Counted from the stretch's first letter, positions 12,333-44,400 are shown. The stretch is DNA of 64,000 nucleotides from Capsulimonadaceae bacterium (GCA_965277095.1 OZ255718.1:3295594-3359593); one strand, 5' to 3'. Program-made: numbers and translations. Notes: a model not told the origin generated them from the sequence alone.

Positions 12333-12570
12333 CGATTGCTTCGGCTTGTCGTACACCAAGTTCATTGTATCAGGTACACTTTAGGCACTACAATCGTTTG
12401 CCCGCCCTGCGGCAATCGTCGGAAGCATCTGCCATTAAGTGAGTGCGTTTTTGCTAAAACGAACTGATTTGAGTAAGTGGGATTACGAAACCGGCAAAAA
12501 GTGAGGTGTTTTTTGCCAAAACGAACGCGCGAAGTTTGTGCGTTTTGATCCCGTCATTATCAGGCAATCG
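12333..12570 (+). other. ORF-less cassette, family C copy 1/3
   Basis: two TTTTTGC(T/C)AAAACGAAC boxes (12448-12464, 12509-12526); A/T hairpin GGCAAAAA-N8-TTTTTTGCC; ends CGATTGC..GCAATCG. Confidence 0.6.
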
Positions 12571-12670
12571 GCCTAACAATGCGCTGCACCCGACGCCACC
12601 CGCCCGGTTTGCTCTGCCTCATTGGTCGGCTTCTCAGTGCGGGTGTCGCAGGTGAGCTAGGTCGTTAGAT
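12571..12670 (+). repeat. attC site 25
   Basis: R''=GCCTAAC; R'=GTTAGAT. Confidence 0.9.
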
Positions 12671-12842
12671 CGCTTGCGGCAAAAGGCTGCTGGCAAGCAC
12701 CGAAACTTTGGCGTGACAATTCAGAACATCGGCTTTGCTTTTTCGGTCAGGCTATGCTATTATTCAGGAAAGTTGTCGGGGTTTATGGGGCTACCGGATG
12801 TCGTAGGCATTCACGTTATCGCTCTCGTTCAGGGGGCAAGCC
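12671..12842 (+). promoter_or_regulatory. ORF-less cassette, family A copy 6/21
   Basis: TGcTATTAT box present; 3' module GGCTACCGGATGTCGTAGGCATTCACG. Confidence 0.7.
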
Positions 12843-12944
12843 ATCTAACAATGCGCTGCACCCGACGCCATCAGCCTGCCTTATGCTTTGCGTTATCGTT
12901 TAGCTTGCGTCGGCTGTTGGCGCAGGTGAGCTATGGCGTTAAGC
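12843..12944 (+). repeat. attC site 26
   Basis: R''=ATCTAAC; R'=GTTAAGC. Confidence 0.9.
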
Positions 12945-13116
12945 CGCAAATGCTGGCGTTCGCACTTGCTTTTGAGAAGTTCGGCAGTCGGCGATTGGTT
13001 TTCTCTCTTTGTGGCAGGCTGCCTTTCGTGTTCTTTGTGGTAAAGTAAGCTGTATTGGCCAGAGTAGCAAGCGAGTTATCGCAGGTTCCCCTACCCCGTG
13101 TTGCTTCTGCATTGCG
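12945..13116 (+). other. ORF-less cassette, family B copy 2/6 (divergent)
   Basis: TGCTGGCGTTCGCA..TTTGAGAAG..TGTGGTAAAGTAAG..GAGTTATCGCAGG. Confidence 0.55.
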
Positions 13117-13207
13117 GCCTAACAATGCGCTGCACCCGACGCCGGTGGTGAGGTTCTCGCATTTCATATCGCGTTTGCACCGGCGCGGGTGAGCTAGGTC
13201 GTTAGAT
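13117..13207 (+). repeat. attC site 27 (short subtype)
   Basis: R''=GCCTAAC; R'=GTTAGAT. Confidence 0.9.
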
Positions 13208-13381
13208 CGCTTGCGGCAAAAGGCTGGCAGCGTCGGCGAAACTTTGGCAACATCATTCCGAAGTCAGACTTTGCTTTTTCGGGGAGGCTGTGCTATTATT
13301 CAGGAAAATTGTCGGAGGCTATGGGCCTTTGCAGGGGTGAGAGGCAGTCGCGTTGTCGGCTCCTCGTTCGTTTGGCAAGCG
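13208..13381 (+). promoter_or_regulatory. ORF-less cassette, family A copy 7/21
   Basis: TGcTATTAT present; 3' end GGCAAGCG makes a perfect 14-nt inverted repeat with the 5' end. Confidence 0.7.
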
Positions 13382-13482
13382 ATCTAACAATGCGCTGCAC
13401 CGGACGCCAGCGGCGCGGTTGTCGTGTGCGTTATCGGGGGTCAAGTGCGTGCCGCTGTCGCAGGTGAGCTATGGCGTTAGGT
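13382..13482 (+). repeat. attC site 28
   Basis: R''=ATCTAAC; R'=GTTAGGT. Confidence 0.9.
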
Positions 13483-13543
13483 CGCTGGGCGAAAGGCTGT
13501 GGGTTGCATAGCGTTAAGTAGAACCCAATCCCGTCTATTGGTG

Positions 13544-13549
13544 TATAAT
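13544..13549 (+). promoter_or_regulatory. -10-like TATAAT upstream of MazE-like gene
   Basis: TATAAT then an 18-nt leader containing GGAGG before ATG 13568. Confidence 0.35.
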
Positions 13550-13567
13550 AATGACACGGAGGAAATT

Positions 13568-13783
13568 ATGATACGCACTGTTGAAGCTACCATTGATGAG
13601 CGAGGAACCGTGCTTCTTGGGGAAGCTATCGCCCTTTCTGCGCCTCATCGGGCACTCGTCACGATTTTAGACGAAGAGCCATACGCCAACGAGGCAGCTT
13701 TACTGAGTGAAGCCGCGTTGGCCGAAGACTGGAGCCGACCCGAGGAGGAGGCCGCATGGTCCCATCTTCAACCGGCGCAGTAG
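13568..13783 (+). CDS. AbrB/MazE-type antitoxin (71 aa)
   Basis: MIRTVEATIDERGTVLL.. swapped-hairpin-like N-terminus, acidic tail; overlaps MazF-like gene. Confidence 0.65.
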   Translation: MIRTVEATIDERGTVLLGEAIALSAPHRALVTILDEEPYANEAALLSEAALAEDWSRPEEEAAWSHLQPAQ

Positions 13784-14103
13784 TCATGGTTTCGTTTCCC
13801 TTCTCTGACTTGTCGCAAACGAAACTGCGCCCTGCTGTTGTTTTGGCTGGAGCCGAACGGGGCGATTGGGTGCTGTGTCAAATCACTAGTAATTCTTACG
13901 CCGATACGCGGGCTGTTCTGTTGAATAACAGCCATTTTCATTCTGGTTCGTTGCGGGTGACAAGTTATGCTCGGCCAGGGAAATTGTTCACTGCCAATCA
14001 GAGTTTGATTTCTTCCCAAATTGGCATTCTCAAGCCGGATGCTTTTGCGCGGGTTTTGGCGGCAGTAGTCACTTTGCTTCAGCCGAAGGCAATTGGGACA
14101 TGA
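13756..14103 (+). CDS. mazF: MazF/PemK-family endoribonuclease toxin (115 aa)
   Basis: GAVVMVSFPFSDLSQTKLRPAVVL..RVTSYARPGKLFT fits the PemK pattern; alternative start ATG 13786. Confidence 0.75.
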   Translation: MVPSSTGAVVMVSFPFSDLSQTKLRPAVVLAGAERGDWVLCQITSNSYADTRAVLLNNSHFHSGSLRVTSYARPGKLFTANQSLISSQIGILKPDAFARVLAAVVTLLQPKAIGT

Positions 14104-42515: not shown

Positions 42516-42690
42516 TCCTATTGCTGGCGTTCTCGTAAGCGTTTTGGAGTTTGGTTGTCGGCTTTTGGCTTGCGTTCTTTGTGAAAAGCTATCCGTCGTG
42601 TTTGTTTTGGTAAAGTAAGTAGGAATGGCAGTGTAGGGAAGTGAGCGTTTGGGCGTCGGTTTCTGTATCCCGTTTGCGCTCCCGGCAGTA
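42516..42690 (+). other. ORF-less cassette, family B copy 4/6
   Basis: near-identical to 1014-1188, including its attC. Confidence 0.6.
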
Positions 42691-42790
42691 GCCTAACAAT
42701 GCGCTGCACCTGACGCCAGTAGCCGCCTCTACCCCAGCGTTATCGGAAGGCAGGTTAGGCTACTGTCGCAGGTGAGCTATGGAGTTAGGC
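42691..42790 (+). repeat. attC site 83
   Basis: R''=GCCTAAC; R'=GTTAGGC; same variable centre as attC 3. Confidence 0.9.
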
Positions 42791-42830
42791 TGCAAACGTA
42801 GGCCGATGCTTCCACGAAAGGCGTCAAACT

Positions 42831-43142
42831 ATGCCAGAAGAACCCAAATTTGTCGTCTACAACGGGGCAAGAATGATTTGGTATTGGCCGGAGCGTATCC
42901 AGCAGGCGCAGCGGCAACCACTTTATCTCATTGAGGGGCAACAATGGGCGCGTGTGCGATATGGCGAGGAAACGCAAGATTGGGAGGCAGAAAAGTTACC
43001 CTGCCATGATTGCCGCGTCATTAAAGGGCAGTTTCATGTTCCCTCGTGCGATGTGGAGCAATGCCCTCGTTGCGGCGAGCAAGCCTTATCCTGCGATTGT
43101 GAACTTGAGGATGTTGCCATAACTGACCTTGTTGCAGCCTAA
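42831..43142 (+). CDS. Cys-rich putative zinc-binding protein (103 aa)
   Basis: CHDC..(13)..C....CPRCG....C.C; stop in attC. Confidence 0.6.
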   Translation: MPEEPKFVVYNGARMIWYWPERIQQAQRQPLYLIEGQQWARVRYGEETQDWEAEKLPCHDCRVIKGQFHVPSCDVEQCPRCGEQALSCDCELEDVAITDLVAA

Positions 43143-43236
43143 CAATGCGCTGCACCCGACGCCAGTGGCCGCGTTTGGCTGTGCAAGTTCGTAGCGCGGG
43201 GTAGGCCACAGTCGCAGGTGAGCTATGGCGTTAGAT
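43137..43236 (+). repeat. attC site 84
   Basis: R''=GCCTAAC; R'=GTTAGAT. Confidence 0.9.
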
Positions 43237-43408
43237 CGCTTGCGGCAAAAGGCTACGGGCAAGCACCGAAACTTTGGCGGACATTCGGAATTGGGCTTTG
43301 CGTTTTCGGTGTGGCTGTGCTATTATTCAGGAAAGTAGTCCGGCGCTTATTGGGTTATCCGGTTGTCGGAGGCGTTGGCGTTCTCGGCCTCTTGGCATGG
43401 GGCAAGCC
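43237..43408 (+). promoter_or_regulatory. ORF-less cassette, family A copy 14/21
   Basis: TGcTATTAT present. Confidence 0.7.
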
Positions 43409-43508
43409 ATCTAACAATGCGCTGCACCTGACGCCAGTAGCCGCGTTTACTTATGCGCGGCGGTTGGCTGTGCATGGCTACCGTCGCAGGTGAGCTATGG
43501 CGTTAGAT
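43409..43508 (+). repeat. attC site 85
   Basis: R''=ATCTAAC; R'=GTTAGAT. Confidence 0.9.
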
Positions 43509-43677
43509 CGCTTGCGGCAAAAGGCTTCTAGCATTTGGCGGGAGTCAGCGGTCATTGGGAGTGGAATTGGCTCTGCGGGAGTGGAAGGCTTTTCATTCGG
43601 TCAAGTTGTCGGAGGCGATGGGGCTTTGCAGTAGTGAGAGGCATCCGCGTTGTCGGCTCTCGTTCGTCTGGCAAGCC
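43509..43677 (+). other. ORF-less cassette, family A copy 15/21 (variant A2)
   Basis: GGAGTGGAATTGGCTC..TTTTCATTCGGTCAAGT middle; directly follows copy 14. Confidence 0.65.
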
Positions 43678-43779
43678 ATCTAACAATGCGCTGCACCGGA
43701 CGCCATCAGCCGGCCTTATGCTTTGCGTTATCGGTTAGCTTGCTTCGGCTGTTGGCGCAGGTGAGCTATGGCGTTAGGC
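43678..43779 (+). repeat. attC site 86
   Basis: R''=ATCTAAC; R'=GTTAGGC. Confidence 0.9.
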
Positions 43780-43814
43780 CGCTAATCGGGGCAGGTTGCT
43801 ACAAGTGAGGCAAA

Positions 43815-44054
43815 ATGGCAACAGAACGAACAATTCGTGAACTTGGTGGGGAGGTTTGGTCTGAACTGGAATACCACATTGCTGAATATGAGTGCAATTG
43901 GCAGGTACGGGGTAAAATTGTGGATATAGTCATGGCTGTCTTGGCACGGCATGAGAACGAGATCATTAGAAACGACGTCGATCTTCCAGTTAAGCTACTG
44001 CCGGAACAATTTTCATTATCAGATGTGGCGAAGGCAGAACCAGTAGCGGCCTAA
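43815..44054 (+). CDS. hypothetical protein (79 aa)
   Basis: ORF track; stop in attC. Confidence 0.55.
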   Translation: MATERTIRELGGEVWSELEYHIAEYECNWQVRGKIVDIVMAVLARHENEIIRNDVDLPVKLLPEQFSLSDVAKAEPVAA

Positions 44055-44147
44055 CAATGCGCTGCACCCGACGCCAGCAGCGCGATTACCTCAGCGTATC
44101 CGTTATGCTGTACAGGCTGCTGTCGCGGGTGAGCTATGCCGTTAGGC
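44049..44147 (+). repeat. attC site 87
   Basis: R''=GCCTAAC; R'=GTTAGGC. Confidence 0.9.
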
Positions 44148-44400
44148 CGCTTGCTTCGGCTTGTCGCACACCAAGTTCATTTTATCAGGTACACTGGTTG
44201 CAGGTGTCAGTTTGGCTTGTTTGTGGCAATCGTCCGCAACGTCCGCCGGAGGGAGCGTCCGCCAGTAAGTGAATGCGTTTCTGCCAAAACGAACGGTATT
44301 GAGTAAGGGAAATTACGAAGTTGGCAAAAAGCGGTGCATTTTTTGCCAAAACGAACTTGTCAGGCTCGTGCGTTTTGATCCCGTAACTGTAGGGCAATCG
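44148..44400 (+). other. ORF-less cassette, family C copy 3/3
   Basis: two TT(T/C)TGCCAAAACGAAC boxes; GGCAAAAAGCGGTGCATTTTTTGCC hairpin. Confidence 0.6.

Follow-up and report, generated by a model that had tools for sequence, protein, structure and literature searches.

What does an integron cassette contribute to its array when it carries no gene? Three short cassettes, here termed family C, raise this question in a 64,000-nucleotide stretch of the genome of a Capsulimonadaceae bacterium (GCA_965277095.1 OZ255718.1:3295594-3359593), hereafter called the window. The window is made up of one integron array with 124 attC sites, all on the plus strand. Each cargo was taken to begin one base after the crossover G of GTTAGGC and to stop one base short of the R'' sequence GCCTAAC; the 5' TTAGGC and the 3' GCCTAAC are present in 3/3 copies. 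A first-pass annotation had the cargos starting at 12333, 36520 and 44148 and running for ~240–250 nt; the three cargos are confirmed, with corrected limits of 12327–12570 (copy 1, 244 nt), 36514–36764 (copy 2, 251 nt) and 44142–44400 (copy 3, 259 nt), all on the plus strand, and every sequence feature named in that annotation is present. Copies 1 and 2 own the attC sites at 12571–12664 and 36765–36858, respectively; the attC of copy 3, beginning at 44401, has a mutated R' crossover G (CTTTAGGC). In this giant array, the box described below is carried by family C and by a single cassette of unrelated backbone, cassette D, likewise without a gene, and the cargos of both are bounded by an R' remnant at the 5' side and the complementary R'' of their own attC at the 3' side, in array orientation. 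The cassettes neighbouring the three copies are unrelated to one another. The 5'-most CGATTGC/CGCTTGC and 3'-most GCAATCG motifs, previously listed as cargo signals, instead lengthen the R''/R' stem of attC to 14 bp; the cassette at 7721–8264, which is not of family C, has the same stem-extending ends. Roughly a quarter of the cassettes in the array belong to small gene-less families.

Under the rule of Blanco et al., a gene-less cassette has neither an annotated gene nor an ORF above 210 bp. Family C is gene-less in substance, not by the letter of this rule. As proposed from first inspection, it is an ORF-less family in that no ORF is conserved; short ORFs measure 43–56 aa on the plus strand and 41–92 aa on the minus strand, with the minus-strand ORFs of copies 2 and 3 (89 and 92 aa) exceeding the 210-bp bound. 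Both of these start inside attC and lie in mutually shifted frames, and neither has a Pfam match or a homologue. The longest ORF of copy 1 is at most 49 aa, and this copy lacks an ATG altogether. Reading frames are interrupted between copies, substitutions show no synonymous bias, Pfam, Rfam and tRNA searches of the cargos returned no matches, and the longest pseudo-ORFs have no homologues among 5.8 billion proteins.

The copies appear to be old paralogues; their pairwise identity is only 73–82% (73–78% for copy 1 against the other two), and all evolutionary comparisons draw on a thin sample of these three copies and cassette D, from one genome. The cassettes are divided into three parts: a near-invariant 5' block, a hypervariable spacer with indels, and a 3' module that is a partly triplicated unit. 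Invariant columns number 51/54 in the 5' block, 21/70 in the middle region, and 88/136 in the 3' half (5' block versus middle, Fisher p = 5e-14); the middle is unalignable, and the 3' half is moderately conserved.

The 3' module is organized around a box of ~28 nt with the core TTTTTGCYAAAACGAAC, present in two direct copies per cassette; the repeated sequence spans 17–28 bases. In copy 1, box 1 lies at 12437–12464 (AAGTGAGTGCGTTTTTGCTAAAACGAAC) and box 2 at 12499–12526 (AAGTGAGGTGTTTTTTGCCAAAACGAAC), both on the plus strand; the equivalents are 36632–36659 and 36694–36721 in copy 2, the boxes of which are the most degenerate (box 1 reads TTTTTTGCGAAAATGAAT), and 44267–44294 and 44329–44356 in copy 3. 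The interval between paired boxes, first put at ~60 nt, is exactly 62 nt from start to start in 3/3 copies, or about six helical turns, and R'' follows 59–60 nt beyond box 2. The inter-box segment (12467–12488, plus strand, TTTGAGTAAGTGGGATTACGAA; equivalents between the boxes of the other two copies) is fixed in length with no indel in any copy, and 18/30 inter-box columns are invariant. Further downstream, the 3' block (12538–12570, plus strand) comprises a half-box, L3 (GTGCGTTTTG; GTGGGTTTTG in copy 2), ATCCCGT..., and then GGCAATCG, the attC-stem extension. The box, initially described as near-palindromic, proved to be longer (~28 nt) and asymmetric: the conserved core of the unit is (GTGCG)TTTTT-GCY-AAAACGAAC, with an almost invariant right arm, a loose left arm, and a T-run of 5 or 6 nt. 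Half-boxes of the form GTKCRTTTT are also found within the 5' block and 11 nt past box 2; the window contains 14 such half-sites, and the family C and D cassettes, 1.0 kb in total, account for 11.

The non-randomness and fixed spacing of the boxes held up under scrutiny. At two or fewer mismatches, TTTTGCYAAAACGAA has eight matches in the window versus 0.51 expected from shuffles (0/100 reach eight), and their orientation is single, with 8/8 on the plus strand. An HMM built from these eight boxes detected no additional copy within the window. Dispersed genomic repeats of the REP or uptake-sequence type lie in many intergenic copies with no bias in position; of the source genome, the comparison covered the window, where the box is present in 4/124 cassettes, at homologous positions. 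The short ORFs on both strands and the repeat-spacer-like period of 28 + 34 nt could be taken to signify a small peptide, or a mini-CRISPR or type III antitoxin-like repeat array; we consider this extremely improbable, given that a peptide would have to reckon with frames broken between copies, a T-run length that varies between boxes, a copy devoid of ATG and the lack of homologues, and a repeat array with repeats only ~82% alike, a ‘spacer’ that is itself conserved between copies, and no adjacent cas or toxin gene. An overlapping third repeat and the absence of cas-like neighbouring ORFs, together with the 82% repeats and the conserved ‘spacer’, argue against a CRISPR mini-array.

Does the module act as a sequence or as a structure? 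The hairpins proposed in the first-pass annotation are there: the A/T-rich arms GGCAAAAA and TTTTTGCC occur in copies 1 and 3, with a gap of 9 nt, not 8, between the 8-nt arms (the left arm of copy 2 is degraded to CATAAAAA), and the possible 3' stem has the arms CAAAACGAAC and GTGCGTTTTG, 90% complementary around an 11-nt loop. Their variation, compared over three sequences, argues against the structured-RNA reading: no compensatory change was found in the proposed helices, and 7/8 variable pairs are broken. RNAalifold covariation terms are unfavourable on both strands (+3.9 and +0.4 kcal/mol), and the box hairpins, at -1 to -5.6 kcal/mol, have z-scores short of significance. The hairpins are not uniformly more stable than shuffled sequence, and folding z-scores are inconsistent between copies, at -3.4 for the 3' half of copy 1, -0.6 and +0.9 for that of the other two, and +1.2 and -1.5 for whole cargos. 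Rfam yielded 0 matches at the gathering threshold and noise only at E<=10; neither a covariance-model match nor compensated helices were found, with three sequences limiting the power of this comparison. Because arm variation loses pairing without compensation, and because the hairpins are thermodynamically weak, we read the boxes as sequence. Family C thus appears to conserve a sequence, not a structure, and the boxes resemble a recognition site more than a folded RNA.

In a rival reading, the cassette specifies a non-coding RNA or contributes a cis-acting RNA element to the array transcript; boxes and inter-box segment would then work as RNA, forming alternative L/R-arm hairpins, exposing a single-stranded seed (UUGAGUAAGUGGGAUUACGAA), or being recognised by a protein or RNase. 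The orientation of every box as the cassette ORFs, arms that permit several mutually exclusive pairings, the z-score of the copy 1 3' half, and two changes in copy 2 that produce G-U pairs on the plus strand are consistent with such a role, and sRNA-encoding non-coding cassettes are known (PMC8876359), with the integron-borne sRNA-Xcc1 as precedent. We nonetheless judge it unlikely: in addition to the Rfam result, the other z-scores and the largely pair-breaking, uncompensated stem variation, the plus strand has no recognisable promoter or intrinsic terminator, and excess complementarity to the rest of the window is confined to attC-related k-mers.

Cassette D offers a view of the module outside family C. 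Two extra boxes had been placed in an atypical interval at 41499–42036; the boxes exist, but the interval is composite, consisting of repeat element X (41493–41753) followed by cassette D (41754–42036, plus strand), and both boxes belong to D. The ends of D are TTAGAC and GTCTAAC, its R' GTTAGAC matching its own R'' GTCTAAC at 42037. Within it lie TGGTATAAT (41779–41787), box D1 (41834–41861), a 19-nt tandem repeat (41861–41898), a hydrophobic 36-aa ORF (41871–41981) for which no homologue was found, box D2 (41975–42002) and the half-box GGGCGTTTT (42007–42015). The alignment with family C is limited to box 2 and the 3' module (~75 nt), and the backbone differs; the module is placed 3'-terminally in D, 50 nt from R'' as against 59–60 nt in family C, a difference of one helical turn. 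This near-constant distance would suit a cis-acting recombination accessory to the neighbouring attC, acting by DNA bending, host-factor binding or extrusion of the bottom-strand hairpin, and raising the mobility of an otherwise cargo-free cassette, as would the extension of the attC stem to 14 bp by the cassette ends and the attC-arm-like 13-mer in the 5' block. Such a role strikes us as very unlikely; folding of the circular-junction DNA returned the 14-bp stem extension only, with the module unpaired with attC, and the module is absent from the 120 other cassettes of the array. Accessory sites are not known for attC sites, which also counts against it.

It is also conceivable that the cargo does nothing, and that family C is a selfish or decaying cassette kept by virtue of having an attC, its ends conserved by gene conversion from near-identical flanking attC repeats and its boxes an internally duplicated relic, for instance of the UTR of a lost gene or of another element. 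Between copies 2 and 3, identity is 100% in the first 54 and the last 29 columns, which adjoin attC, and only 59–76% in the interior; base loss has touched every box and arm of copy 2, and the crossover G is mutated in copy 3's own attC. The family was not found in the representative genomes, metagenomes and related array searched, and among the gene-less cassettes of Vibrio some are genes that have degenerated (10.1101/2023.11.21.568050). Decay accounts less readily for the interior boxes, which between copies 1 and 3 form islands of 85–86% identity amid flanks of 43–70%, for the 62-nt spacing, free of indels where indels of 16–20 nt occur elsewhere in the copies, and for the module's retention in cassette D, which is unrelated yet has it in the corresponding place, immediately before attC; a protein-coding relic is not detectable. 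We regard a functionless cargo as doubtful.

The 5' block (12327–12380; equivalents 36514–36567 and 44142–44195) begins with the R' remnant and attC-stem extension (first 13 nt), continues with an attC-arm-like (GC)TTGCTTCGGCT (13 nt in copies 2 and 3, 11 nt in copy 1), and then has CACCAAGTTCATTKTATCAGGTACAC. The 13-mer is also found inside 5 attCs, and the conservation of the block may stem in part from attC-like sequence or from gene conversion out of flanking attC repeats. On the minus strand, the block holds an extended -10-like element of the form TGnTAnAAT at 12364–12372 (TGATACAAT; equivalents TGATAAAAT at 36551–36559 and 44179–44187); of the three columns that vary in the block, one coincides with the hexamer position under the weakest constraint. 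TGnTAWHAT elements number 32 in the array versus 10.9 expected; family A (21 copies) and D have them on the plus strand, family C on the minus strand. No good -35 was found for the antisense element, which a consensus scan does not call, and no sigma-70 consensus promoter or terminator was called in any family C copy; in-silico promoter calls are unreliable and do not predict activity (10.1101/2023.11.21.568050). The distance from 5' block to boxes is about 88, 96 and 100 bp across copies, and the two modules are not phased.

Protein-binding sites are the reading of the boxes most compatible with these data, and we prefer it because conservation extends to the sequence but not to the pairing. 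We tentatively propose that family C is a gene-less regulatory cassette predicted to act in cis, not a gene for a protein or a folded RNA. Most simply, the boxes would be putative duplex-DNA sites for a sequence-specific protein, with the two sites, 62 bp apart, facing the same side of the helix; binding there would modulate transcription through the array, as a roadblock or operator, and the 5' block would supply an outward-facing antisense promoter, comparable to those found by experiment to silence upstream cassettes in Vibrio arrays. Several observations weigh against this regulatory reading: no binding protein is known for the box, no sigma-70 promoter is called, no convincing -35 accompanies the antisense element, and the modules are unphased. 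The asymmetry of the box and its variable T-run are awkward for a symmetric dimer operator. A bolder version, which we hold to be improbable, has the box module as a dedicated landing pad, the cassette carrying nothing but two binding sites for a specific protein, whether from the host, encoded by a cassette or associated with the integrase; such a movable operator, insulator or decoy would program the transcription or recombination of its neighbours and, if real, would define a functional cassette class beyond ‘gene’ and ‘promoter’.

Tandem operators, iterons and centromere-like protein-binding repeats, such as those of the sopC type, each of which contains an inverted repeat, have a likeness to family C that is architectural only. 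Shared traits are directly repeated units with an imperfect inverted repeat in each, a fixed spacing of nearly whole helical turns, and extra half-sites; family C differs in having only 2.5 units, an asymmetric box, no adjacent binding-protein gene and no replicon to partition. The idea of partition-like sites has no rationale in a cassette, which is non-replicating. Closer relatives in kind are the gene-less ‘promoter’ cassettes of Vibrio (Blanco et al. 2023/24) and Treponema (Tansirichaiya et al. 2019), likewise attC-bounded, without a conserved ORF and in a very large array. Chromosomal integrons commonly hold ORF-less cassettes, and promoters are present in most of those tested (10.1101/2023.11.21.568050; PMC8876359); one antisense promoter cassette in Vibrio lowers the expression of the upstream cassette (10.1101/2023.11.21.568050), and this single ‘silencer’ has a sequence-level match in the antisense -10-like element of family C. 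The array of family C also holds the gene-less family A, whose 21 copies have a conserved TTGCTT-N17-TGcTATTAT element. Family C cargos are shorter, at 244–259 nt versus 335–515 nt for the Vibrio gene-less set, and the Vibrio and Treponema accounts are not known to describe a paired box at fixed spacing. With sRNA-Xcc1, an Rfam family of Xanthomonas integrons, family C would share a non-coding function on an integron cassette; sRNA-Xcc1 lies with symE, oriented against Pc, whereas family C has no partner gene and no Rfam match.

The initial view that no such element is known in integrons was therefore too strong for the class, as gene-less cassettes are common (10.1101/2023.11.21.568050, PMC8876359); the box motif itself, however, had no match in our searches. 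No family C homologue was found in representative genomes, JGI metagenomes, IMG/VR, plasmids, phages or one related array, and the box-plus-half-box pattern has at most a single chance-like match in each representative genome; the family appears to be lineage-restricted. It is a lineage-restricted example of an already known class, the non-coding integron cassettes, and, being confined to one genome, its value is that of a candidate, not a discovery. Gene-less cassettes can switch their neighbours on or off (10.1101/2023.11.21.568050). If the pair of recognition boxes and the antisense -10 element function as proposed, arrays would carry regulated control elements besides constitutive promoters, and the many small gene-less families of this array would make it a good system in which to test that idea.

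The 64-kb window is a single integron cassette array throughout. Its attC sites, located by their R''-proximal consensus GCCTAACAATGCGCTGCAC, number 123–124, all on the plus strand, against 0.04 expected; each is ~94 nt long, with the start on the R'' side and the end reading GGTGAGCT...GTTAGGC. The array's sense strand is plus: among the 28 ORFs that reach 150 aa or more, 26 run in that direction and the remaining two are transposases. Each cassette opens at its 5' end with an R' remnant, the exact complement of R'' in the attC of the same cassette, and cassette boundaries are therefore easily checked. 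Bounded in this way by R' remnant and R'', the cargos of the gene-less family C cassettes c12333, c36520 and c44148 occupy 12327–12570, 36514–36764 and 44142–44400 on the plus strand. They can be aligned over their full length, are only 73–82% identical and differ by 16–20-nt indels mid-cargo. This divergence is close to that of family A, a set of 21 gene-less cassettes (mean identity 74%), and well above that of duplicated protein-coding cassettes (91–100% identical).

The outermost blocks of family C, CG(A/C)TTGC and GCAATCG, which the first-pass annotation had read as cargo signals, instead pair with each other and lengthen the attC R''/R' stem by 7 bp; DNA folding gives a 14-bp stem at the circular junction, and identical ends occur in one further cassette. 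The 7 nt at either end of the "cargo" are therefore functionally attC. Stems in the array generally run 7 bp past the canonical R''/R', for example GCAATCGGCCTAAC with GTTAGGCCGATTGC (12327–12339 with 12564–12577). In the attC that follows c44148 (44476–44487), CTTTAGGC stands in place of CGTTAGGC; since the crossover G of R' is mutated, c44148 is probably fused to its downstream neighbor and non-excisable at this junction.

The box and conserved blocks described earlier are present. The pattern TTTTGCYAAAACGAA at up to two mismatches gave eight matches in the window, all on the plus strand, against 0.51 expected, and every family C copy holds two boxes exactly 62 nt apart. The motif, previously described as near-palindromic, was confirmed but is longer than thought: it is a ~28-nt direct repeat, AAGTGAG-GTGCG-T5-6-GCY-AAAACGAAC, in which the right part is near-invariant and the left part loose. 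An HMM built from the eight boxes found no weaker copies in the window or in L051, a related metagenomic array. Half-boxes of the form GTKCRTTTT are found as GTTCATTTT in the 5' block, the first 54 nt of the cargo, and as GTGCGTTTT 11 nt past box 2; the latter gives rise to the CAAAACG..CGTTTTG stem proposed earlier. A generic genome-wide repeat, named at the outset as the finding that would undo the proposal, is not the picture within the window alone, where only 4 of the 124 cassettes carry the box and its positions in them are homologous.

The fourth of these is cassette D (41754–42036), otherwise unrelated to family C, in which a box, a half-box and the cassette 3' end (~75 nt) stand directly upstream of attC as they do in family C, with a second box upstream of this shared 3' module. 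The sharing of the module with D is the strongest argument that the boxes matter. An accessory role of the 3' module in attC function is suggested by its distance to R'', 59–60 nt in family C and 50 nt in D; we regard this role as very unlikely.

Family C does not code for protein: c12333 contains no ATG on the plus strand, and the longest ORFs (41–92 aa) begin within attCs, shift frame between copies and differ mostly at non-synonymous positions. Family C has no Pfam match, and nothing related to its two longest pseudo-ORFs turned up among 5.8 billion proteins. On these grounds a protein-coding cargo was rejected; a small peptide, a mini-CRISPR or an antitoxin-like array is extremely unlikely. 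A structured RNA had also been suggested at the outset. No Rfam family reached the gathering threshold in the window, matches at E ≤ 10 were noise alone, and neither a tRNA nor a tmRNA was found. Pairs were counted in three previously proposed helices (box-internal, GGCAAAAA/TTTTTGCC and AAAACGAAC/GTGCGTTTT) across the three copies: there were no compensatory changes, and of the eight variable pairs seven are unpaired and one changes to G-U. The RNAalifold covariation term is unfavorable on both strands, the box-internal hairpins (−1 to −5.6 kcal/mol) are no better than shuffles, and whole-cargo folding gave z-scores of +1.2, +0.3 and −1.5. The 3' halves scored −3.4, −0.6 and +0.9 on the plus strand and −2.4, −3.5 and −1.1 on the minus strand. 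A folded RNA or single-stranded DNA is thus not supported, and an RNA-level function is rather doubtful.

Conservation within the family is very uneven: 51 invariant columns fall in the 54 at the 5' end, 21 in the 70 that follow and 88 in the final 136 (Fisher p = 5e-14 and 4e-6). Between c12333 and c44148, both boxes are 85–86% identical and the surrounding stretches 43–70%; the inter-box stretch is free of indels in all copies, and the T-run within the box is 5 or 6 nt. The pattern could also have arisen without any function, through gene conversion and decay. The c36520 copy, with changes in every box and arm, may be decaying, and its 100% identity to c44148 at both cassette ends is what gene conversion out of near-identical flanking attCs would produce. 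The 5' block is also partly attC-like: the 13-mer GCTTGCTTCGGCT (44149–44161, and in the 5' blocks of the other copies), followed by (GT)TGTCGC, recurs in the 3' arm of five attCs (at 17221, 31398, 40081, 43678 and 59352; attC positions ~61–73), suggesting that part of the block may derive from an attC arm. The identical ends and the attC-like block weaken the argument for selection; an absence of function appears on the unlikely side.

Consensus scans found no sigma-70 promoter in any family C copy; for intrinsic terminators they were negative in c12333 and c44148, and the region of c36520 holds two weak terminator-like hairpins at about shuffle level. The extended −10-like element TGnTAWHAT occurs 32 times in the window, 25 times on the plus strand, against 10.9 in shuffles (three times more). 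Most of these lie in family A (for example 12665–12842, 13202–13381 and 43231–43408), whose ~185-nt cassettes begin with TTAGATCGCTTGCGGCAAAAGGCT, end with GGGCAAGCC|ATCTAAC and have a mean pairwise identity of 74%. In the sense orientation, TTGCTT-N17-TGcTATTAT is kept by all 21 copies near positions 70–100; dispersed along the array, they are candidate sense "promoter cassettes". Cassette D has a perfect TGGTATAAT close to its 5' end. The family C counterpart is found on the minus strand within the 5' block, as TGATAAAAT in two copies and TGATACAAT in the other, and points outward to the upstream attC; the third and least constrained hexamer position is one of the three variable columns of the block, and no good −35 is present. 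A perfect TGGTATAAT at 37045–37053 (minus strand), one of seven antisense TGnTAWHAT elements in the window, lies in the cassette immediately downstream of c36520.

Taken together, a regulatory model is tentatively favored, in which family C would be a gene-less cassette whose boxes are sequence-specific recognition sites and whose 5' block is an outward antisense promoter. The boxes would be recognized most simply by a DNA-binding protein, and their 62-bp spacing, 5.9 turns, would place both sites on one helix face. The 5' block would supply the antisense promoter, and boxes and block, jointly or singly, may modulate transcription across the array. The model is weakened because i) the box is asymmetric and its T-run variable, ii) the distance from 5' block to box (about 88, 96 and 100 bp) is not phased, and iii) the cassette contains no regulated gene. 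That family C is a movable cassette of binding sites only seems quite unlikely. The literature would fit the regulatory model: gene-less cassettes make up 6–49% of Vibrio arrays, most of the 30 tested had sense promoter activity, one antisense-promoter cassette lowered expression of the upstream cassette, and promoter-prediction software had no predictive value for activity (10.1101/2023.11.21.568050). Other known cases are the ORF-less promoter cassettes of Treponema and the sRNA-Xcc1 cassette (PMC8876359); family C falls outside sRNA-Xcc1 and every Rfam family, and its resemblance to operator, iteron and centromere repeat arrays is architectural only.

Several known signals were compared and discarded. 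The ends of the IS5-like elements in the window (CTAGAGCCTGTTATG...) are unrelated to the box, and the Tn402 terminal repeats are not significantly similar. Judged by eye only, spacing or key positions misfit for sigma-54 −24/−12, ECF-type, Cheo/LexA, IHF and DnaA sites, and likewise for a USS-like core, a MOBQ nic site and a mini-attC.

What had been taken for a single atypical interval with two more boxes is in fact two units, element X and cassette D; both boxes are real and lie inside D, whose TTAGAC matches its own R'' GTCTAAC. Within D, 41861–41981 holds two copies of a 19-nt tandem repeat, CTSTTAATCGGTGTCCTTT, and, downstream of TGGTATAAT and between the boxes, a strongly hydrophobic 36-aa ORF, MSFLLIGVLWSLLVGEWFGAFASGLAAAGSVGLPLA. 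The layout resembles a type I toxin, but the ORF has no preceding RBS and no homologue among 1.84 billion representative proteins. Many family A copies contain a block (CCGGCAGTCGGAGGCG, e.g. 2210–2235) almost identical to the 3' end of D (42019–42036, CCGGCAGTCGGAAGGCG), which hints that gene-less families may share modules; a whole-family HMM comparison of these families was negative.

Element X (41493–41753) is a non-coding unit of ~260–350 nt with two homologues in L051 (4581–4878 and 14437–14789). It always starts directly after R' GTTAGGC, with CGCTGGATAAGGCTTGRATTGGCACGG, and also carries GGCGTATAAT; then come 3–5 repeats of ~47 nt in tandem, sharing the core ATAGRYGGAAGTT...GCTGTTCGA, a 9-bp hairpin, TAGATGGAA/TTCCATCTA, toward the 3' end, and ...CTCATATG, ending ...CATATG. 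The next cassette then begins immediately, with TTAGAC or TTGGGC, and X has no recognizable attC of its own. X has the look of a promoter joined to a repeat RNA, much like a type III antitoxin, or else of an insertion that targets attCs. Elsewhere, two IS5-family elements (45765–46637, minus; 51274–52146, plus; 873 bp each, 100% identical, ends CTAGAGCCTGTTATG) lie inverted to each other inside cassettes and could invert the ~4.6 kb between them, and an IS701-like transposase gene (61778–62773, minus) interrupts an ankyrin-repeat-like cassette.

Searches for relatives covered genomes, metagenomes, plasmids and phages. The box-plus-half-box pattern gave 47 single matches in unrelated taxa among 185,579 representative genomes, with BLAST likeness limited to the box, at chance level. 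Two patterns gave no matches in JGI metagenomes, the 5' block pattern none in IMG/VR (where the attC 18-mer had three isolated matches), and blastn nothing in plasmids and phages. Searching with the longest ORFs of either strand, in translation, matched nothing, and the cargos of C, D and X gave no match to a general attC HMM or to the family A HMM. With tblastn, the transposases of the window matched plasmids from mixed taxa, which offer no taxonomic pointer. L051 (ENA ERZ25070695, contig ctg124670, 18.8 kb), found via a cassette protein, has 37 attCs of the window type; both the family C cassette and the box are absent from it. Identity between its cassette proteins and those encoded in the window reaches 80%, and L051 is the sole relative of the integron lineage reached. 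The covered portions of the gene-less integron cassette literature make no mention of a paired-box module. Family C, confined to one genome in three to four copies and with an activity that is only predicted, adds a new family to the known class of gene-less integron cassettes, since its paired-box module is unmatched in these searches and absent from the literature covered.
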